DNA of 64,000 bases from an uncultured Candidatus Saccharibacteria bacterium (GTDB lineage: Bacteria > Patescibacteriota > WWE3 > UBA101185 > UBA10185): the NCBI GenBank assembly GCA_964540135.1, contig CAZILK010000002.1, positions 33,074 through 97,073 of the forward strand, in the 5' to 3' direction. The notes under the pieces are model-generated. The model saw only the letters and a program-made list of their open reading frames with translations. It did no database searches and was not told where the DNA came from. The translations under genes were made by a program, and so were the position numbers. This document shows, piece after piece, positions 3,942-27,779 of the stretch (position 1 is its first letter; every line of letters starts with the position of its first letter).

Positions 3942-5078
3942 TTAAAAGCTAAAAACAGATGCTATATCTTTTACTGTAACAAGAACGATTAGTCCAAGAA
4001 GAGCTATCATGCCCCACTTATGCATAAAGTTTTCGATAGCTGGAGAAACCTTTTTACGCGTTACACTCTCGATGAGGACAAAAACAAGTCTACCACCGTC
4101 AAGCGCTGGGAATGGCATGATATTTAAAAAGGCAAGACTTAACGAGAGTACAGCCATCAAGTCTATAATACCTAAGAAAGCCTCTTTCCCGCCATAATCC
4201 AAAATACTACCAACAACACCAAAGATACCAATTGGTCCCGATACTGATTCGGATAACCCGCTTGCGTCTTTTTCTTTAACTGAAGTACTTACAATACTTC
4301 CCATCGTAGACATGCTGTAAGACAAGATATTGTAGGAGTGCAAAACTCCAGCTAGAGCTTTATTGGAGCCTTCATACGACAAAGTTACAGCTTTACTTAA
4401 AGCAACTCCTAGAAGCCCCTCTCCTTTATCATTTGAGATAGTAGTTAATTCAACTGTTTTAAGTGTTCTTTTAAGGCTGATTACATCCATCACAAGGACT
4501 TTTATCTTCTGATTAGGTTTTGCTTTTAATTTCTCTTTAATGTCAGTTACTGTGTAAACAGGTTCTCCATTAATCTCAATAACTGCCTCCCCTACTTCAA
4601 GGCCTGCTTTTTTGGCAAGTGAATTTGGAGCAAAACCACTAATTACTGTATTTGTGATCTTTTCTTGGCCAAATTTGAAATCATAATCAAAAAGAAGAGG
4701 CATAGTGAGTGATTTAAAATTGGTAAAGGTGAAAAAGACGTAATACAAAACAATACCAAGTAAAACATTCATTGAGACTCCTGCAACAAGAACTACAGCC
4801 CTTTGCCATGGCTTTTTAGCTGAAAAACTTCTTGGATCATAAACTGTTTGAGATGTTTCGTCCGCGTCTTCGCCAAGGAGTTTTACAAAACCCCCGAAAG
4901 GCAAAGCATTGATTGAGTAAAGTGTTTCGCCTCGTTTTTTACCCCAAATTCTTGGCGGGAGACCAAAACCAAACTCTTCAACCTTTATACCAAAACCTTT
5001 TGCTGTAATAAAATGGCCAAACTCGTGTATAAACACAAGAGTAGATAGGATTAAAAAAAAGATTAAAAATGTAAACAT
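3942..5078 (-). CDS. rseP: Site-2 protease family zinc metalloprotease (RseP-like, M50 with PDZ)
   Basis: 'HEFGHF' HExxH motif in the first TM helix, central PDZ-like segment, and C-terminal 'LNIMPFPALDGGR' (LDG motif). Confidence 0.8.
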   Translation of the reverse strand: MFTFLIFFLILSTLVFIHEFGHFITAKGFGIKVEEFGFGLPPRIWGKKRGETLYSINALPFGGFVKLLGEDADETSQTVYDPRSFSAKKPWQRAVVLVAGVSMNVLLGIVLYYVFFTFTNFKSLTMPLLFDYDFKFGQEKITNTVISGFAPNSLAKKAGLEVGEAVIEINGEPVYTVTDIKEKLKAKPNQKIKVLVMDVISLKRTLKTVELTTISNDKGEGLLGVALSKAVTLSYEGSNKALAGVLHSYNILSYSMSTMGSIVSTSVKEKDASGLSESVSGPIGIFGVVGSILDYGGKEAFLGIIDLMAVLSLSLAFLNIMPFPALDGGRLVFVLIESVTRKKVSPAIENFMHKWGMIALLGLIVLVTVKDIASVFSF

Positions 5079-5085
5079 AGGTTAA

Positions 5086-5634
5086 TTAGATTTCAAGAAT
5101 TGCTTGTCTTTTGCTTTCCCCAATCTCGGTAACTTCTGAGATCTTATCTTTCACAATCTTTTCTACTTCTTCTTTTTGTGCAAATTTTTCATCTTCGCCA
5201 ATTTCTTTATCAGTAAACAATTTATCCACATATTTAATAGCGTCTTGTCTAATATTACGCATTGACTGCCTTGCCTGCTCCATTTTGGTATTTATTACCT
5301 TTGCAAACTCTTCTCTTCTTTCCTCAGAAAGTGGTGGGATTGGAATTCTTAAAACACCATCTGCTGAAACCGGATTTAATTTAAGATCGCTATTTCTAAT
5401 TGCTTTATCAATAAGTGCGAGAACACTTTTATCCCAGGGGGACACTACAATTAGTTGTGGTTCTGGAACTGAAATTGTTGCAAGTTCTTTTACTTTCATA
5501 ACAGTACCGTAAGCTTCAATACCCATATCTTCAATTAGGGTTGGGCTTGCTCTCCCTGTTCTAACCTGAGAAATATCAGTCTTGAAAAACTCTATTGCAC
5601 TGTCTAGTTTTTTGATTAATTCGTTTTTAGTCAT
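5086..5634 (-). CDS. frr: Ribosome recycling factor
   Basis: 182 aa. 'QVRTGRASPTLIEDM' and the coiled-coil arm are typical of Frr. Sits in rpsB-tsf-frr synteny. Confidence 0.9.
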   Translation of the reverse strand: MTKNELIKKLDSAIEFFKTDISQVRTGRASPTLIEDMGIEAYGTVMKVKELATISVPEPQLIVVSPWDKSVLALIDKAIRNSDLKLNPVSADGVLRIPIPPLSEERREEFAKVINTKMEQARQSMRNIRQDAIKYVDKLFTDKEIGEDEKFAQKEEVEKIVKDKISEVTEIGESKRQAILEI

Positions 5635-21224: not shown

Positions 21225-22496
21225 ATGATTGACACTAGATTACTGGAGCATATTATACTTAACCCGCATTGCAAAATTGCGGATATCCAAAAGGAACTGG
21301 GCTATAACAGAACTACTCTACTTTACAAGCTGGAAAGGCTTATAAAAGAAAGGGTAATTAAAAAGGCATTTGAAGGCAAAGTAGCTGTATACCTGCCTTC
21401 TGAAAAATCAGCAATTGAGAGCTATTTCAACTCACAAATAGACGAAACAAAGAACATACAACACCAACTACTCACTAAGTTTAAGGTAAAAAAAGGTAAA
21501 GTTGCCAAAACAAAGCCAAAGCTTGTGTTTGTTAACTACTACGACCTGCTACCTGCCTTTAAGGAAGAGCTCAACACTGCCTATGAAATAACCGACTATT
21601 CAAATAAAGAATTATTTCTCTCGCAAGAAGAATTTGCATATCGCGCGCAAGATGCTGACGTTATAGTTAATAACTGGGCATGTGATGTTGGCAAATCACT
21701 TATCAAACAGCTGCCAAAACTAAAATATATGCATGTTTCAACACACATGTATCGTTACGTTGACCTAAAAGCACTAGACGAAAACAAGATTCATTTTTCA
21801 TATCTTCAAGCACCTGATTACAGGGTTCACGCTCTCTCAGAGTTTGCAATTGCACAAACCTTTGCCCTACTTAGAAAAGTTGCTGTTGCATCTTCCCAAT
21901 TAAGATCTGGAGTTATGGAATTCAAACAATTCACTGGCGATGAACTAAGAGGAAAGGTTGTTGGAATTATTGGTACCGACGCTGTGAGTAAAGAGCTCTT
22001 TTATTCTCTTAAAAATTTAGGGACTGAGGTATATGTTCACAACGAGAACGCAGCTGCCAATCCGCATGACTGGGGTTTGTCTAAATTCACACCACTTAAA
22101 ATGTTGGTTGAGCAGTCTGACATACTTTATCTTGTAAACAGTGAGGACACTCCGCCTAAAGTTTGCGAAAGGCTTGATGCGAGTTTACTAAACTTCATCA
22201 AAAAGCCTACATACCTAATAAGTATTACAAAACACAAATATATCGACACCAAGCTTATCAAAAAATTCATCTATAACGGCAAAATTAAAGGACTGGCCTT
22301 AGATTATTTCGAAGATATGAATAAAATCAAAGAGCTTAAAGACTCTGAAATTAGTACCATCACCTACCTCCCCAATGTTTTAATAACACCAGACATAGCT
22401 TGGAGCACCAAGACATCGATTGAAAATATGAACATTGCAACGAACAAATACCTAATGGCATACGCAAAAGGAGATCATAGCTATTTGCTACTTTAA
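21225..22496 (+). CDS. Winged-HTH regulator fused to a degenerate D-isomer-specific 2-hydroxyacid dehydrogenase-like domain
   Basis: N-terminal wHTH 'KIADIQKELGYNRTTLLYKLERLIKE'. C-terminal NAD-binding-like 'VGIIGTDAVS' and 'LALDYFE'. The catalytic His position reads 'ITPDIAWST' (His replaced by Asp), which suggests a sensor pseudo-enzyme. Confidence 0.55.
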   Translation: MIDTRLLEHIILNPHCKIADIQKELGYNRTTLLYKLERLIKERVIKKAFEGKVAVYLPSEKSAIESYFNSQIDETKNIQHQLLTKFKVKKGKVAKTKPKLVFVNYYDLLPAFKEELNTAYEITDYSNKELFLSQEEFAYRAQDADVIVNNWACDVGKSLIKQLPKLKYMHVSTHMYRYVDLKALDENKIHFSYLQAPDYRVHALSEFAIAQTFALLRKVAVASSQLRSGVMEFKQFTGDELRGKVVGIIGTDAVSKELFYSLKNLGTEVYVHNENAAANPHDWGLSKFTPLKMLVEQSDILYLVNSEDTPPKVCERLDASLLNFIKKPTYLISITKHKYIDTKLIKKFIYNGKIKGLALDYFEDMNKIKELKDSEISTITYLPNVLITPDIAWSTKTSIENMNIATNKYLMAYAKGDHSYLLL

Positions 22497-22500
22497 TACA

Positions 22501-23472
22501 ATGAAATTTGTTGCATTAGATTTAGGCTATATCCATTTTGAACACCTAAGTAAAATTGGGGATATCGAGGGAATAACTGATTTTAAATACTTCCCTATCC
22601 CACCAATTGATGAGGCTGAAATCATCGCCAGAATTGGAGATGCTGAGCTTGTAACTGGGAGGGTTTATTGCAAAATTAACAAACATGTTATCGAGAATGC
22701 CACAAACCTCAAAGCAGTATTTACACAATCAGTGGGTTTTGATCACATAGACACTGACTTTGCAAAGTCTAAAGGTATTAAAGTCTACAATTGCCCCGGA
22801 TATAACTCAAATTCGGTTGCAGAGTTCGCGTTTAGCCTAGTTTTAAGTCTTTTTAGAAAAATCCCAGCTGCTCAAGAACACGTTAGAGCCGGCGGTGTTG
22901 AATACAGACTATTTGAAGGTACGGATCTCAGAAATAAAACAATTGGAATTATTGGAGCCGGCAATGTGGGCAGTAAAATTGTTTCAATTGCCAAAGGGTT
23001 TGGCATGAAGCCTCTTGTCGCTACAAAAAACCCATCTAACAAAAGAGCGCAGGCTATAGGAATAGAAGGCTTCACAGATTTAGACAAATTGTTAAGAAAC
23101 TCTGATGTAATTGTGGTTGCAGTTACCCTAACCCCTGAAACCAAGGGACTGCTGGGGAAAAAAGAACTTGGATTAATACCACAAACTAGTTTTCTGATCA
23201 ATATATCAAGACAAACAGTTATAGATGAGAACGAGCTCGCTAAACGAATAGTGGAAAGAAAAATTGCAGGCGCTGCATTAGATTTATTGCTAAAAGACCC
23301 TTTTAAAATTGACGAACATTCGCTCCTGATTCAAGAAATGGTTAATATGCCAAATGTCATAATAACTCCACATATTGCAGCTGAAACAAAAGAAGCGAAC
23401 TACAACCTAGGTGTTATAACGCTTGAAAACATTACAAACTTCTTAAGAGGAGTTGACCAAAACTTAGTATAA
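22501..23472 (+). CDS. D-isomer-specific 2-hydroxyacid dehydrogenase (intact catalytic residues)
   Basis: 'GIIGAGNVG' Rossmann motif, catalytic 'ISRQTVIDE', 'AALDLL' and 'IITPHIAAET' (catalytic His). Confidence 0.8.
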   Translation: MKFVALDLGYIHFEHLSKIGDIEGITDFKYFPIPPIDEAEIIARIGDAELVTGRVYCKINKHVIENATNLKAVFTQSVGFDHIDTDFAKSKGIKVYNCPGYNSNSVAEFAFSLVLSLFRKIPAAQEHVRAGGVEYRLFEGTDLRNKTIGIIGAGNVGSKIVSIAKGFGMKPLVATKNPSNKRAQAIGIEGFTDLDKLLRNSDVIVVAVTLTPETKGLLGKKELGLIPQTSFLINISRQTVIDENELAKRIVERKIAGAALDLLLKDPFKIDEHSLLIQEMVNMPNVIITPHIAAETKEANYNLGVITLENITNFLRGVDQNLV

Positions 23473-24289: not shown

Positions 24290-25207
24290 TTGATAGTACA
24301 TCAATTGCTACTTATAATGCAAGACATGCACTATTCAAAAGGTGTTGTCTACATCTTAATATCAGCGGTCTTTTACGCCTCGTACGGCGTATGGTCTAGG
24401 CTGATGGGTTCATCTTTTGGTGAGTTTACCCAAGCCTGGACACGAGGACTATTCCTACTGGTAGTTATTCTGATACTCAACAGTAAATTTAAGTTCTTAA
24501 AGAAGTTTGGTAAGAAAGATTTGCCTTGGTTTATGCTAATTGCACTTGCCGGAGGTATTAATCAAGCTCCTTATTACTTTGGGTTTCAACATCTGCAAAT
24601 TGGTACTGCTACCCTACTCTTTTATGCCTCTCTTGTTGTTGGAGGATATGTTATGAGTAAGGTATTTCTACAAGAGAAAATTAACTCAACCAAGCTTTTT
24701 AGCCTTGGACTTTCAATTCTTGGCATGGTTTTAATTTACAAATTTTCACTCAGTACTGGGCAGCTTTTGGCAGCCGTTTTAACCTGTATCGCAGGGATTC
24801 TTGGAGCAGCAACTGTTGTACTTACAAAAAAACTTTCGGGAAATTATTCCGAGCTTCAAATTATGATTGGTTATTTTGCATTACAAGTAGTGATTAACCT
24901 CCCGCTTGCAGTTCTCAGTCACGAAGTAATGCCCTCTTTCTCAAATACAACAGCTTGGGTCGCACAAATCCTCTATGCATTTAGTATGCTTGCAGCCAAC
25001 TATGCTGTGATCGAGGGTTTTAAACATGTAGACGGAAGTATCGGCAGCTTAATCGGACTTGCTGAAATACTCTTTGGTGCTTTCTTTGGCTGGCTGTTGT
25101 TCTCAGAACTAATCTCAGCTTTTACTTTAATGGGTGGAATTATAATTATTGCTGCAGCAGCATATCCAAGTTTAAGAGCTAGAACTAAAGATGATCTTAA
25201 CTACTAG
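24290..25207 (+). CDS. EamA/DMT-superfamily transporter (10-TM)
   Basis: Two repeated 5-TM halves, with hydrophobic periodicity typical of EamA. Confidence 0.6.
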   Translation: MIVHQLLLIMQDMHYSKGVVYILISAVFYASYGVWSRLMGSSFGEFTQAWTRGLFLLVVILILNSKFKFLKKFGKKDLPWFMLIALAGGINQAPYYFGFQHLQIGTATLLFYASLVVGGYVMSKVFLQEKINSTKLFSLGLSILGMVLIYKFSLSTGQLLAAVLTCIAGILGAATVVLTKKLSGNYSELQIMIGYFALQVVINLPLAVLSHEVMPSFSNTTAWVAQILYAFSMLAANYAVIEGFKHVDGSIGSLIGLAEILFGAFFGWLLFSELISAFTLMGGIIIIAAAAYPSLRARTKDDLNY

Positions 25208-26048
25208 GTCTTTCTGATGCTCGCCTTCCCCATCCTGTACCTGGATCAAAGCGGTCGGTATCATATGGTGGTGGTACTGTAAGATCGTCTATAAGCCATG
25301 TATACCTATCTCCGTGTTTCAGCACTGTGTCAGATCTTTTTAAGTTGGGATAAAATCTGTCCGCAACCTTGTAATACAAAAATGTTAGGATGTAATCGCC
25401 GTTTGACCAGGTAACTTTTGGTAATTGCCTTGAAAGATTAAGCTCATCCAAAGTTGGAACCTCAAAAACACGTATTTTTCTTGTACCTGGTAGTCGGATT
25501 AAGTTAGTAGCCGCTATATAGGCCTCGGATATAGCGCTTTGTTCAACACCCATCTCTGTTAACTTTTTGACAATATTACCAGTCTGTTCGCCAAAAATTC
25601 TTAGATCATCAGCTACTACAAGATCATAACCTTTAAGGCTGCCCAGATCAGCTATTTCGTCTACGCTTATTGTTGAAAATCTATCTGGAGACCTTGTTGC
25701 TAGCTTGTCAGCTATCCAAACCCTACTCCCTCTCTCATCGCCATCATGAATCAACAGTATAGGCAGTTCACTAGATTCAAGATTAGCAGCTAAAACATCC
25801 AATGCATCTTCAAAAGTTTTATCATCTATGCATCTTATATTTGACCGTATGCCTTCTAAGCAGGTATCTGTGCCTCCGCTATTTAAAAATGCATCTCTAA
25901 AGTCTTCGAGCAGATCTAATCGCAACTGCTCAGGAGGGTTTTCTGGACTAATCAGTGGAGCGAGGCTCTCGCCATTTAAGCCAAGAGTCTCAAAAGATAC
26001 AGCTGCTGCTTCAGCGTATCGTACTTCATTATGCGCGGTAAGTATCAT
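25197..26048 (-). CDS. Hypothetical protein with a phosphoribosyltransferase (type I PRTase)-like segment. Higher GC.
   Basis: 'YDLVVADDLRIFGEQTGNIVKKL' resembles the PRPP-binding loop (hydrophobic-DD-x-x-TG-T) of type I PRTases. GC is clearly elevated. Confidence 0.4.
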   Translation of the reverse strand: MILTAHNEVRYAEAAAVSFETLGLNGESLAPLISPENPPEQLRLDLLEDFRDAFLNSGGTDTCLEGIRSNIRCIDDKTFEDALDVLAANLESSELPILLIHDGDERGSRVWIADKLATRSPDRFSTISVDEIADLGSLKGYDLVVADDLRIFGEQTGNIVKKLTEMGVEQSAISEAYIAATNLIRLPGTRKIRVFEVPTLDELNLSRQLPKVTWSNGDYILTFLYYKVADRFYPNLKRSDTVLKHGDRYTWLIDDLTVPPPYDTDRFDPGTGWGRRASERPSS

Positions 26049-26139
26049 TTCTAATTATAGTTTTATACTTAATAAATTAATTAATACCAAAATCAAAAAC
26101 GGAATACTCTTTTAAGTTTATAAGTTGGTGCACAGAAAT

Positions 26140-26700
26140 TCAATGTTCTTGGTTTAAAGCATCATCAAGCACCATTCTAAGATATTCAGATTTATTTACT
26201 CCTAACTCTTTTGCTTTACTTTCAAGATGAGCTTTATGTCTATCGGAAAGAAATAGGTTAAACCTGTTATGCAGGGTTTCGGTTGATATTTTGGTGATGA
26301 AATTTTCAAGAATCTCCTCATACGTATACTCGTTATATTTAGCACCGTGGAAATACCTGCTCTTAATCTTTTGGGAATAATCTTCATGTACTGACAGGCA
26401 TAACACATGTTTATTTGATTGAATTGCAAGAGTTGCTTCGTGCCCTAGTTGAAAATCTTCTTCACTAATTTCCATAATCACAGCATTTGCCCACTCAATC
26501 CCCTTTTTGATAGCAAGATAATGCTCTTCTTGTTTGGTCTTGAGATGTGAAGTTTTAGAAGTATTTAAGAGTGCTTTGTAGTTATTCTTTTCAGGAGATG
26601 TAACTACAAGATGCATTTCATCTAATTTTTTAAGTATTTTATCGTAATTTGCTTGATAGGACTTCTTTCCTCTAAACGATGCTGTAAAAAAGATGTTCAT
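26140..26700 (-). CDS. Nucleoside 2-deoxyribosyltransferase-like (NDT/DNPH1-fold) domain fused to a C-terminal ribbon-helix-helix DNA-binding domain
   Basis: N-terminal 'MNIFFTASFRG' plus a catalytic-Glu region 'VIMEISEEDFQLGHEATLAIQSNKHVLCL' (NDT-like). C-terminal 'DRHKAHLESKAKELGVNKSEYLRMVLDDAL' is CopG/Arc-type RHH. Start set at the internal Met. Confidence 0.5.
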   Translation of the reverse strand: MNIFFTASFRGKKSYQANYDKILKKLDEMHLVVTSPEKNNYKALLNTSKTSHLKTKQEEHYLAIKKGIEWANAVIMEISEEDFQLGHEATLAIQSNKHVLCLSVHEDYSQKIKSRYFHGAKYNEYTYEEILENFITKISTETLHNRFNLFLSDRHKAHLESKAKELGVNKSEYLRMVLDDALNQEH

Positions 26701-26763
26701 ACATATGTATGTATACACTAGTATATACAGGAATGCAAGAACAGTGGTATATAGTATATACAT

Positions 26764-27220
26764 ATGATTACAGGTATCGGAACACATATTAAAGTTAGGG
26801 ACTTTAAAAAATCAGTGGCTTTTTATAAAGCACTTGGCTTTAAGAAAGTCTTTGAATGCGGACCAAAATGCCCCGTGAAAGAAGCTTATAGCGGGATGAT
26901 TTTTGAAACACGGTGGCTGTAAGCTAGAAATCGCTGATGGTCACAGAGCTGTTAAAAAAGAGGTGTTTTTAGAACAAGTTACAAGTTCAAAAATATCGTT
27001 AGTAATATATGTCTCAACTCTTGGAAACGTGATCAAGTCTTGCGAACGAGCCGGCATTACAATTGCTGTAAAACCAAGACATTTCTACTGGAATACACTT
27101 GAGCTTGTTATAAAAGATCCTGACGGAGTTGTTCTAGTATTTGTAGCGCCATACATTAAACGCGAAGCTAAAAAACTAAACGCAGATGAAACATATTCTG
27201 TACAGAGCATGAGTCCTTAA
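26764..27220 (+). pseudogene. Glyoxalase/VOC-family gene disrupted by a +1 frameshift near a T4 run (~26900)
   Basis: ATG at 26764 encodes 'MITGIGTHIKVRDFKKSVAFYKALGF...', a VOC N-terminal beta-alpha-beta-beta-beta module, and ends at TAA 26920. The rest of the domain ('...KLEIADGH...PRHFYWNTLELVIKDPDGVVLVF') continues in the +1 frame from 26903. Confidence 0.5.
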
Positions 27221-27239
27221 TGCATTAATTGACAGTGAT

Positions 27240-27779
27240 ATGGAGCTTTGCAAAATTAAAACAAAATGTTTTAATTACTGTATGACATCTGAAACGAACA
27301 GTGACAAAGAAGTAGTACACGCTGAAAGAGAGCCTTCTGTGGACATGAGCGCTGCGTGTCTTTTGTATCTTATTCAAAATAGGGTTGGCGTAAAAGAAAG
27401 TATTTTTGTAAATTGGTCCCAAAGTAATGCAAGCGGTGCAAAAATAAGTGACGAGCCGGGACTTCTTGAGGAAATAATAAATGTTGCGAATGAAGGCCCT
27501 AACACAGACGTGGATGAAGACAGAGTACGAGCGTGGTTCGGCGTATTAAAATATAACGCTGGTGCTAGTTTTATATCGATTGAACAGGCACGAGGTCTGG
27601 GGAAAAGGGTAGGTGTTTTAATAGATTATTTACAAGACAGAGGTGTTGGCGCTGAGAGAGAACTAGCGACTTTAAACGAGGAAAATATCGGTCCAACACT
27701 TAGAAATGAGATTTTAAAGGCTACGCCTTCGTACGGAATATCTCCTAGTCAGTCAGAACAGATCTCCTCACTAGTGTAG
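27240..27779 (+). CDS. Hypothetical protein
   Basis: 179-aa ORF with no recognisable motif. The start may be an internal Met. Confidence 0.3.
   Translation: MELCKIKTKCFNYCMTSETNSDKEVVHAEREPSVDMSAACLLYLIQNRVGVKESIFVNWSQSNASGAKISDEPGLLEEIINVANEGPNTDVDEDRVRAWFGVLKYNAGASFISIEQARGLGKRVGVLIDYLQDRGVGAERELATLNEENIGPTLRNEILKATPSYGISPSQSEQISSLV

Follow-up and report, generated by a model that had tools for sequence, protein, structure and literature searches.

Regulators that sense their effector through an enzyme fold include B. subtilis PurR (PRTase fold), NrtR (Nudix fold), NadR and BirA, in which the fold of a nucleotide-metabolism enzyme has lost some of its catalytic residues and kept its pocket. 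Ribbon-helix-helix (RHH) proteins offer a second precedent. NikR, MetJ, CopG-type repressors and PutA carry an RHH and a ligand-binding or enzyme domain on the same polypeptide, bind a palindromic operator over their own or a divergent promoter, and occupy two sites spaced by a whole number of helical turns. The third group consists of enzymes of the PF05014 superfamily, namely DNPH1/Rcl, the nucleoside 2-deoxyribosyltransferases (NDTs) and the MilB/BlsM CMP hydrolases, which have in common an active-site strand-loop of the form ...E-x-S/T-x-x-D/S-x-x-x-G-x-E.... The nucleophile is E104 in DNPH1 and E98 in NDT, and mutants of the DNPH1 Asp and Glu serve as substrate traps (PMC10603095). The nucleotide specificity of DNPH1 comes from Ser98 and, from the partner subunit, Ser128', which together hold the 5'-phosphate (PMC10603095).

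Gene A lies in a 64-kb window (the whole stretch of DNA analysed here) from an uncultured Candidatus Saccharibacteria bacterium. Its product has the same active-site strand-loop, and it alone, compared with the characterised DNPH1, NDT and MilB enzymes, also has a C-terminal DNA-binding domain (Table 1). As in NikR, MetJ, CopG-type repressors and PutA, the RHH shares one polypeptide with a ligand-binding or enzyme domain, the operator is palindromic (predicted for gene A) and there are two sites in helical phase. However, the domain order is the reverse of that in NikR and PutA (sensor N-terminal, RHH C-terminal), the effector domain has the NDT/DNPH1 fold, and the operator sequence and regulon (VOC, EamA) are new. 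The protein also resembles PurR, NrtR, NadR and BirA in its enzyme-derived effector domain, but differs from them in fold, DNA-binding domain and taxonomic range (Patescibacteria), and its targets would be a VOC enzyme and an exporter rather than nucleotide biosynthesis. A full-text literature search found no description of an NDT/DNPH1-RHH fusion or of such a regulon, and a search on SLOG/Nuc_deoxyrib_tr sensors returned nothing relevant. The reading we favour, and hold to be somewhat probable, is that gene A encodes a ligand-responsive one-component RHH autorepressor with the VOC and exporter genes also under its control.

Table 1. Features of the gene A locus, in window coordinates.
Feature	Position	Strand	Basis
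EamA/DMT-family transporter gene	24290..25207	+	family match, synteny
Gene B: 283-aa lineage-specific ORF, outside the conserved module	25197..26048	-	synteny, homologue search
Gene A: 186-aa NDT/DNPH1-fold + RHH protein	26140..26700	-	ORF reading, homologue N-termini
C-terminal RHH domain, residues 144-186	26143..26271	-	profile matches, predicted structure, alignment
N-terminal NDT/DNPH1/MilB-fold domain, residues 1-140	26281..26700	-	alignment, predicted structure, fold comparison
Proximal operator (predicted)	26698..26718	-	conserved palindrome, PWM scan, comparative alignment
-35-like hexamer TTGCAT	26733..26738	-	sequence reading, 17 bp upstream of TATACA -10-like hexamer
Distal operator or half-site (predicted)	26745..26766	+	inverted repeats I2, I3; direct repeats D2, D3
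Divergent VOC gene (glyoxalase/bleomycin-resistance/dioxygenase, PF00903)	26764..27220	+	family match, synteny

The ORF list and the sequence give gene A as one uninterrupted reading frame of 186 aa with its stop codon at 26140-26142, which rules out that the RHH part is a separate ORF. Public gene calls use a longer start, 21 codons too long. Judging by the homologues, translation begins with the ATG at 26698-26700 (MNIFF...), and the longer ORF and the annotated 207-aa start are wrong, because homologue N-termini begin at this ATG without exception (M[KREN][IV]F[YF]TAS) and the upstream extension of the longer ORF is conserved at the DNA level, not the protein level. At least 296 close homologues keep the fusion at full length, as do most of the 854 representatives obtained by clustering at 50% identity, and nearly all of these proteins are 180-195 aa long and contain both domains. 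The family was found at 48 further species-level genome loci, those with a stated taxonomy being Patescibacteria, and these together with the window locus form the set of 49 loci used for synteny and motif analysis. The original prediction had placed gene A inside an accessory island. On comparative evidence it is not a gene specific to such an island, given that the family spans many lineages of Patescibacteria, in which both its gene neighbourhood and its predicted operator are conserved.

An NDT-like N-terminal domain had been predicted, with an HMM search (PF05014) and structure prediction suggested as checks, and both found similarity to NDT and DNPH1. The domain has a flavodoxin-like α/β fold that superposes on NDT, DNPH1 and MilB. 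The gene A protein matches PF05014 at E 0.026 (15.1 bits; gathering cut-off 28.8 bits), 13 of 36 family members match at E<0.01, and a broader N-domain profile finds Rcl/DNPH1 at E 2.4e-7 and NDT at 0.013. Homology to the NDT/DNPH1 superfamily is supported by these profiles, though the scores stay below the curated Pfam threshold. The invariant motif E77-x-S79-x-E81-D82-F-Q-L-G86-H87-E88 ends in E88, which aligns with the Rcl/DNPH1 nucleophile and is present in 36/36 RHH-fused members and in all fusion variants; E37, likewise invariant, aligns with DNPH1 E55. In contrast to the characterised enzymes, the position of the catalytic Tyr (DNPH1 Y24, NDT Y7) is occupied by an invariant F4 and that of the general-acid Asp (DNPH1 D80, NDT D72) by A63 or I64, depending on the alignment register. 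Thus, canonical hydrolase or transferase chemistry is not assured. The phosphate-binding Ser98 position of DNPH1 corresponds to the invariant D82, as in NDT, and we take this to be the position at which NDT, six residues ahead of its nucleophile, has its 3'-OH-binding Asp. A possible phosphate-binding element is the invariant G11-K12 loop.

The active site also bears on a second reading, to which we give distinctly less weight than to an autorepressor, in which gene A encodes a bifunctional enzyme-repressor (cf. PutA, BirA, NadR): an active N-glycosidase or transferase of nucleoside salvage, whose RHH ties the expression of gene A, the VOC gene and the exporter to its substrate. The invariance of E88, E37 and D82 favours it, as do about 15 polar residues that are invariant in the N-domain alignment and the enzyme-like contexts in which N-domain relatives occur, with PfkB kinase fusions encoded between PGK and TIM and methyltransferase fusions encoded next to GTP cyclohydrolase II. 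Given the invariant nucleophile and the metabolic contexts of these fusions, the N-domain may be a working enzyme and not a passive sensor, but of the three residues in the DNPH1/NDT triad it lacks two (Tyr to F4, Asp to A63/I64). All of the DNA-binding evidence is common to the enzyme-repressor and the autorepressor, and catalysis is the sole difference between them. In one further relative of the N-domain, P0172, an HTH_3 domain takes the place of the RHH, an exchange typical of sensor modules.

The C-terminal domain comprises a strand (R146-F-N148-L-F150-L-S) followed by helices at residues 153-166 and 170-185 (model pLDDT ~90), and the region aligns with CopG residues 2-40. R146, F147, N148 and F150 are invariant throughout the family. 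In RHH proteins a strand of the R-F-N-x-F type is the DNA-reading element, and R146 and N148 are the predicted base-contacting residues. Among profile matches, the Pfam NikA-like family was found in the gene A protein at E 9e-4 (score 19.7 bits, cut-off 27) and in 15 of 36 family members, and RHH_3 in three (best 6.8e-6), all below the curated cut-offs. An RHH-only profile searched against the PDB gave NikA (0.12), HP0222 (0.22) and CopG (0.85) as its top natural matches, which are weak and non-significant, and mutually consistent. The predicted fusion of a CopG/Arc-type RHH to the NDT-like domain is upheld by the strand-helix-helix arrangement and by the conservation of the fusion across the family.

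A perfect 14-bp palindrome, CATACATATGTATG, lies at 26698-26711 and has the gene A start codon inside it. It belongs to the predicted proximal operator, for which the family consensus is TGATATACATATATATGTAT (also given as ATACATATATATGTAT) and which overlaps a -10-like TATACA (26710-15 on the plus strand, read as TGTATA). About 45 of the 49 loci have the motif in front of gene A, lying across the -10 region and start codon and usually touching the ATG. Across the 447 kb of sequence in these loci, 78 of 78 PWM matches of at least 12 bits fall within 400 bp upstream of gene A and none elsewhere, where shuffles would give about five; the proximal sites themselves served to train the PWM, so part of this specificity count is circular, which does not apply to the absence elsewhere or to the negative controls. 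In the window, the proximal site is the sole strong match. Furthermore, seven relatives that carry the same N-domain without an RHH (an HTH_3 fusion, PfkB fusions, methyltransferase fusions and one tandem form) have no motif in 400 nt, with a best score of ≤1.9 bits. The palindrome is, on this comparison, specific to the locus, fixed in spacing and strict in its co-occurrence with the RHH domain. A clade with an RFNxFLY strand has a variant operator (TGTATGTATATA...), a covariation that could be plain phylogenetic inertia.

The predicted distal element lies at the start of the VOC gene. The sequence TATATACATATG at 26755-26766 is an inverted copy of the proximal site, its 3' end being the VOC start codon, and TAGTATATACA is present twice, at 26719-29 and 26752-62. 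A distal ATATGTATA half-site was found in 23 loci, and in 21 of them its distance upstream from the proximal site is 49-54 nt (controls 2/141). The pattern TTGNNN-N16-18-NATAYA recurs at the matching position in 16 of 39 aligned loci, and by manual and comparative reading TTGCAT/TATACA would be the gene A promoter, yielding a leaderless or near-leaderless mRNA. A generic sigma-70 scan of 25900-27000 called no promoter in the intergenic region. An Rfam scan of 25900-27400 found no riboswitch, and its sole match (mir-297, 27 bits against a gathering score of 90) is spurious and due to the TA/TG palindrome.

That the motif overlaps -10-like and start-codon sequences, and that the RHH sequence scores are weak, would also suit a plain metabolic enzyme with an RHH-like tail for oligomerisation, the AT-rich palindrome then being a lineage-typical promoter or leaderless-start element bound otherwise. 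We consider this improbable. No further copy of the motif turned up in the 447 kb from these genomes or in the window, so it was rejected as a general promoter or leaderless-start signal; moreover, it is missing upstream of 7/7 non-RHH relatives, and the invariant strand is of the DNA-reading RHH type. The comparative evidence for a putative RHH operator, a palindrome near the predicted promoter of gene A itself, is strong. Autoregulation through the RHH fusion, as originally proposed, is supported as a putative function by the conserved palindrome at the gene A start and its absence from non-RHH relatives.

The synteny of gene A points to two partners. The VOC gene is divergent from gene A in 32 of 49 loci, with H8, E55, H60 and E113 invariant in its product, and an EamA gene takes the divergent position in about nine further loci and is found close by in about 13. 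Apart from these two families, none is enriched near gene A in the 49 loci. In the window, the EamA gene is convergent and lies past gene B, and the VOC gene is split by a 1-nt insertion at 26906-26908 relative to an intact VOC gene (L050). The VOC enzyme, with its predicted metal site, and/or the EamA-type exporter looks like a detoxification or efflux module.

An autorepressor at this locus would work through its two domains. The RHH domain would dimerise and bind the AT-rich palindrome, and would thereby cover the -10 region, transcription start and start codon of gene A. With a related half-site positioned where the divergent gene begins, some five helical turns from the palindrome, an oligomer joined by both RHH dimers and NDT-fold dimers would shut off both divergent promoters. 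The N-domain would be the effector module for a nucleoside- or nucleotide-like small molecule, which it would bind and may also cleave, or by which it may become covalently modified. Ligand binding would alter the affinity for DNA and so de-repress the partner genes. We infer RHH binding to the palindrome, repression as the mode of action, the chemical nature of the ligand and which way it acts. Against this reading stand the frameshifted VOC target in the window, the RHH matches below curated cut-offs and the failure of the generic sigma-70 scan to call the proposed promoters. A more specific form of the model is speculative: gene A may represent an undescribed class of one-component regulator, widespread in Patescibacteria, in which a DNPH1/NDT-fold sensor of a toxic or damaged nucleoside or nucleotide frees an RHH clamp from two phased operators, inducing the VOC gene and the DMT exporter via leaderless divergent promoters. 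In such a sensor, with the nucleophilic Glu kept and the acid and Tyr lost, a long-lived covalent ribosyl-enzyme adduct could possibly form.

Gene A had originally been paired with gene B, described as an upstream neighbour on the same strand, rich in GC and with a segment resembling a PRPP-binding loop. The strand is the same, but as both genes are on the minus strand gene B is downstream of gene A, across a 91-nt gap. Its GC excess proved marginal (41.4%, where the window averages 38.0% with sd 2.0; within the top 8% of equal-sized windows), and its GC3 (0.296) is no different from that of its neighbours. Searches of Pfam (E<=1), NCBIfam, PHROGs, PADLOC and PDB sequences gave no family match for gene B, and its LVVADDLRIFGEQ segment is kept in its one homologue. 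The sole support for a PRTase fold comes from a poor model built from a two-sequence alignment (pLDDT 44; residues 80-175 alone moderately confident), for which the best Foldseek matches were to E. coli XGPRT (E 0.025-0.05, probability 0.5-0.8; 0.69 for the match at E 0.025), a weak hint that gene B may be PRTase-like. Among 5.8 billion proteins, a single distant relative of gene B was found. A co-occurrence search, which the original prediction had also suggested, found the A-B adjacency restricted to assemblies of the same species (0/48 other loci), and co-function was rejected for this reason. By its distribution, gene B is a lineage-specific near-orphan unrelated to the gene A module; the functional pair is therefore unsupported.

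An antitoxin or anti-phage role had likewise been proposed, in which gene A, maybe with gene B, would form a nucleotide-depleting, signal-processing or toxin-antitoxin-like module with the RHH as antitoxin or autoregulator. RHH domains are common antitoxins, and there is a weak VapB match (E 0.013). The region around gene A differs between strains, and a sister assembly has a PIN-MazE pair. However, PADLOC matched neither gene, no toxin or defence genes are enriched within ~5 kb either side of gene A in the 49 loci, and searches of phage, plasmid and IMG/VR collections found no relatives. The scarcity of gene B and its absence from all other loci weigh against such a module as well, and the conserved partners of gene A are a VOC enzyme and an exporter. 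The proposal is thus very improbable and, as judged from these searches, genes A and B do not form an anti-phage or toxin-antitoxin pair.

Gene regulation in Patescibacteria (CPR) is, to our knowledge, almost unexplored by experiment; most of these bacteria are uncultured, and they rely on scavenged nucleosides and nucleotides. The locus offers a complete candidate regulatory unit, with a small soluble regulator, a predicted operator of 16-20 bp, a phased second site and target genes, and this unit is conserved in 48 or more species-level genomes as well as in metagenomic protein clusters that number in the hundreds. For annotation, the start of gene A is corrected and the neighbouring 283-aa ORF is separated from the module. 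If the model is true, the NDT/DNPH1 fold would join the enzyme folds recruited as sensor domains of transcription factors, and the identity of the ligand could lead to a metabolite or toxin of nucleoside type that is relevant to CPR-host interactions.

Gene A combines an N-terminal NDT/DNPH1-like domain with a C-terminal ribbon-helix-helix (RHH) domain, and this part of the original prediction was upheld by structure and profile comparisons. In Pfam, the window protein alone gave sub-threshold matches to Nuc_deoxyrib_tr (E 0.026, residues 3-108) and a NikA-like RHH family (E 9e-4, residues 147-177). The AF2 model, built from a 36-sequence alignment, was confident (pLDDT 87, pTM 0.78); its top Foldseek matches were all DNPH1/Rcl (E about 1e-6, probability 1.0), and CopG residues 2-40 aligned to the RHH region. 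A wider N-domain profile that included fusion variants matched Rcl/DNPH1 (E 2.4e-7) and NDT (0.013-0.03). Among 36 family members, NikA-like matches were found in 15 and RHH_3 matches in three (best 6.8e-6), and the top natural matches of a profile of the RHH domain only were NikA, HP0222 and CopG, none significant. Two findings that would speak against a fusion, lack of fold likeness and an RHH part forming a separate ORF, were looked for and neither was made, since the frame runs unchanged and without a stop codon from one domain into the next, and family members share the fusion. At least 296 close full-length homologues (about 183-190 aa) were found, those with a named source being Patescibacteria, including Levy-, Ames- and Dojkabacteria. 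An exhaustive profile search returned 854 family representatives at 50% identity, most of them 180-195 aa and covered in both domains. Public names are 'hypothetical' or 'ribbon-helix-helix domain-containing protein', with no others.

Coordinates of gene A, neighbouring genes and operator-like elements in the window
Feature	Position	Strand	Remarks
Gene A	26140-26700	minus	186 aa, begins MNIFFTASFRG
RHH domain of gene A	C-terminal 45 residues		strand R146-F-N-L-F-L-S; helices 153-166, 170-185
Gene B	25197-26048	minus	283 aa; 91 nt downstream of gene A
EamA gene	24290-25207	plus	
VOC gene	26764-27220	plus	split by 1-nt insertion
Proximal site	26699-26718	minus	GTGTATACATACATATGTAT
Perfect palindrome CATACATATGTATG	26698-26711		inside proximal site, start codon of gene A included
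-35-like TTGCAT	26733-26738		
Inverted half-site TATATACATATG	26755-26766		terminates in VOC start codon

The ORF over gene A can be read further, to 26787, and the start chosen in public gene calls gives 207 aa. All homologues start M-[KREN]-[IV]-F-[YF]-T-A-S, and the extra residues (…LVYTYICM) are operator DNA in translation. Because the homologue N-termini agree and the extension is a translated conserved DNA motif, the 186-aa start is the true one. The public start lies 21 codons too early (window 26701-26763, minus strand; 2286-2909 and 1160-1783 in assembly L049 and the sister assembly L050, respectively), and an artefactual N-terminus 'MYTY[VI]CM' also occurs on several database homologues.

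The ORFs up to about 5 kb away from gene A were all clustered across 49 loci, comprising 48 species-level genome loci and the window. The sole strongly enriched family was a divergently transcribed protein of roughly 150 aa (32 of 49 loci), which belongs to VOC (PF00903, Glyoxalase/Bleomycin-resistance/Dioxygenase; E 1e-16). Its residues H8, E55, H60 and E113 vary little or not at all, which fits a metal site, and database comparison found no close characterised relative. About nine loci that lack VOC have an EamA/DMT transporter as the divergent gene, and EamA genes lie near gene A in about 13. The insertion in the window VOC gene (26906-26908, AAA vs AA) is also present in L049, and L050 has an intact gene (151 aa); the insertion marks a recent pseudogene or a strain polymorphism, unless it is an assembly error common to the window and L049. 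The anti-phage or antitoxin role first proposed for gene A was not borne out. PADLOC returned no match, the 49 loci contain no toxin or defence partner, and relatives are absent from phage, plasmid and viral collections, so that a defence or toxin-antitoxin module is disfavoured as highly improbable.

The divergent intergenic region, about 65-90 bp long, carries a motif (consensus TGATATACATATATATGTAT) whose core is a 16-bp palindrome (ATACATATATATGTAT). About 45 of the 49 loci carry this proximal site ahead of gene A, and its end usually falls exactly at the ATG. A PWM trained on 28 proximal sites (cut-off 12 bits) gave 78 matches in 447 kb of loci, against about five expected in shuffles. 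Every one of the 78 fell in the 400 bp ahead of gene A, and the strong matches in the 64-kb window were confined to the gene A intergenic spot. Of 47 loci, 23 have a distal half-site (ATATGTATA, at most one mismatch). Its distance upstream from the proximal site is 49-54 nt in 21 of them (mode 51-52, about five helical turns), compared with 2/141 control segments. Furthermore, a -35-like TTGCNT stands 17 bp upstream of TATACA, the left arm of the palindrome, and the arrangement is the same in 16 of 39 loci. This placement would set the operator over the -10 element and transcription start, and would leave the gene A mRNA leaderless or nearly so. A generic promoter scan did not call the proposed promoter, and Rfam gave no RNA family over this region. 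A mir-297 precursor at 26697-26770 (27 bits vs a gathering score of 90) was rejected as spurious, the DNA being TA/TG-rich and palindromic.

Among RHH-fused loci, 39 of 48 score at least 12 bits and the remainder at least 7.5. The N-domain also occurs with a PfkB kinase (P0155, P0170 and the L046 protein), a SAM methyltransferase (P0178, P0188) or HTH_3 (P0172), and as a tandem duplication (P0252); in seven loci with non-RHH architectures the motif is absent upstream (best <=1.9 bits in 400 nt). In a clade with the RHH strand RFNxFLY, which includes Gottesman-, Beckwith-, Woese- and Levybacteria, the operator is a variant (TGTATGTATATA…) and the divergent gene is mostly EamA. This covariation of strand and operator is suggestive, and shared ancestry alone may explain it. 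A purely enzymatic role, to which the palindrome is unrelated, is unlikely. The simplest model, which is moderately favoured, makes gene A an RHH repressor of the one-component type that has two target sets and an NDT/DNPH1-fold effector domain. Under this model, (i) gene A would regulate itself by way of the proximal palindrome, which covers its -10 element and start, (ii) the divergent VOC or EamA gene would be controlled via the phased distal site, and (iii) the ligand of the effector domain would be nucleoside- or nucleotide-like.

In human DNPH1 the catalytic triad is Y24, D80 and E104, with E55 and H56 assisting and the phosphate held by S98 and S128' (PMC10603095). Mapping through HMM alignments placed the nucleophile E104 at gene A E88 and the assisting E55 at E37, both invariant. 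The triad Tyr Y24 corresponds to an invariant F4, the general acid D80 to A63 or I64, by register, and the phosphate-binding S98 to an invariant D82. T6, G11, K12, Q16, Y41, H60, E77, E81, H87, S103, K111 and Y122 are also invariant. The segment S-E-E-D-F-Q-L-G-H-E-A-T-L-A resembles the NDT segment in which the 3'-OH-binding Asp lies six residues ahead of the nucleophile. The pocket is thus strongly conserved, yet two members of the canonical catalytic triad are missing. The main alternative, a bifunctional enzyme-repressor, differs solely in that the N-domain would be an active glycosidase as well; in its favour stand the conserved nucleophile and the fusions of enzyme type, the lost Tyr and Asp count against it, and it is a tentative, clearly less probable reading. 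Of these fusions, the N-domain-PfkB gene is flanked by phosphoglycerate kinase on one side and triose-phosphate isomerase on the other (locus L054, 705-4292), a context compatible with a nucleoside-to-sugar-phosphate salvage enzyme. The methyltransferase fusion is directly downstream of GTP cyclohydrolase II on two unrelated contigs (L055 1296-3336; L056 149-2864), which suggests that GTP-derived ribosylaminopyrimidine-type nucleotides can be substrates of this domain family.

Gene B, originally described as an upstream, high-GC, PRTase-like ORF paired with gene A, lies downstream on the same minus strand. Its GC content is marginally high at best (41.4% vs a window mean of 38.0%, sd 2.0 in equal-sized windows), with GC3 (0.296) similar to neighbouring genes. 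Among 5.8 billion proteins it matched itself and one other at 44% identity, and Pfam (E<=1), NCBIfam, PHROGs, PADLOC and PDB sequences gave no match. The AF2 model from two sequences was poor (pLDDT 44), an alpha/beta core at residues 80-175 alone reaching about 70-85; its best Foldseek match was E. coli XGPRT (E 0.025-0.05, probability 0.5-0.8). This fold match is a weak hint towards the PRTase idea, which gains no family match in any sequence search; the LVVADDLRIFGEQ segment is conserved in the single homologue. Gene B adjoins gene A in three assemblies, all of the same species, and in 0/48 other loci, and appears not to be its partner.

The 3' ends of gene B and the convergent EamA gene overlap by 11 nt (25197-25207). 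Next to the TrmB gene, L050 carries a PIN-MazE toxin-antitoxin pair (4568-5223), at the place where two 2-hydroxyacid dehydrogenase genes stand in tandem in the window (21225-23472); the region is thus strain-variable, though gene A itself is conserved. The first (21225-22496, plus strand) encodes a 423-aa D-isomer enzyme with a winged-helix-like N-terminal extension of about 60 aa, for which a faint HTH_24 match was the only one; an unfused paralogue follows directly (22501-23472).

PurR has a PRTase fold and NrtR a Nudix fold, and gene A resembles both of these enzyme-fold sensors. Functionally, it is also like the NikR, MetJ and CopG-type RHH repressors and PutA, an RHH-enzyme fusion. On the predicted model its effector domain is structurally a member of the NDT/DNPH1/MilB superfamily, from which it departs in two catalytic residues and in falling below the Pfam curated threshold. 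A full-text literature search turned up neither an NDT-RHH regulator nor a VOC/EamA regulon. Gene A is rated as a probable ligand-responsive RHH repressor with an unusual sensor fold. For the Patescibacteria, a poorly understood group, it would provide a regulator-operator-target unit that is conserved and fully specified, and its putative ligand may be informative.
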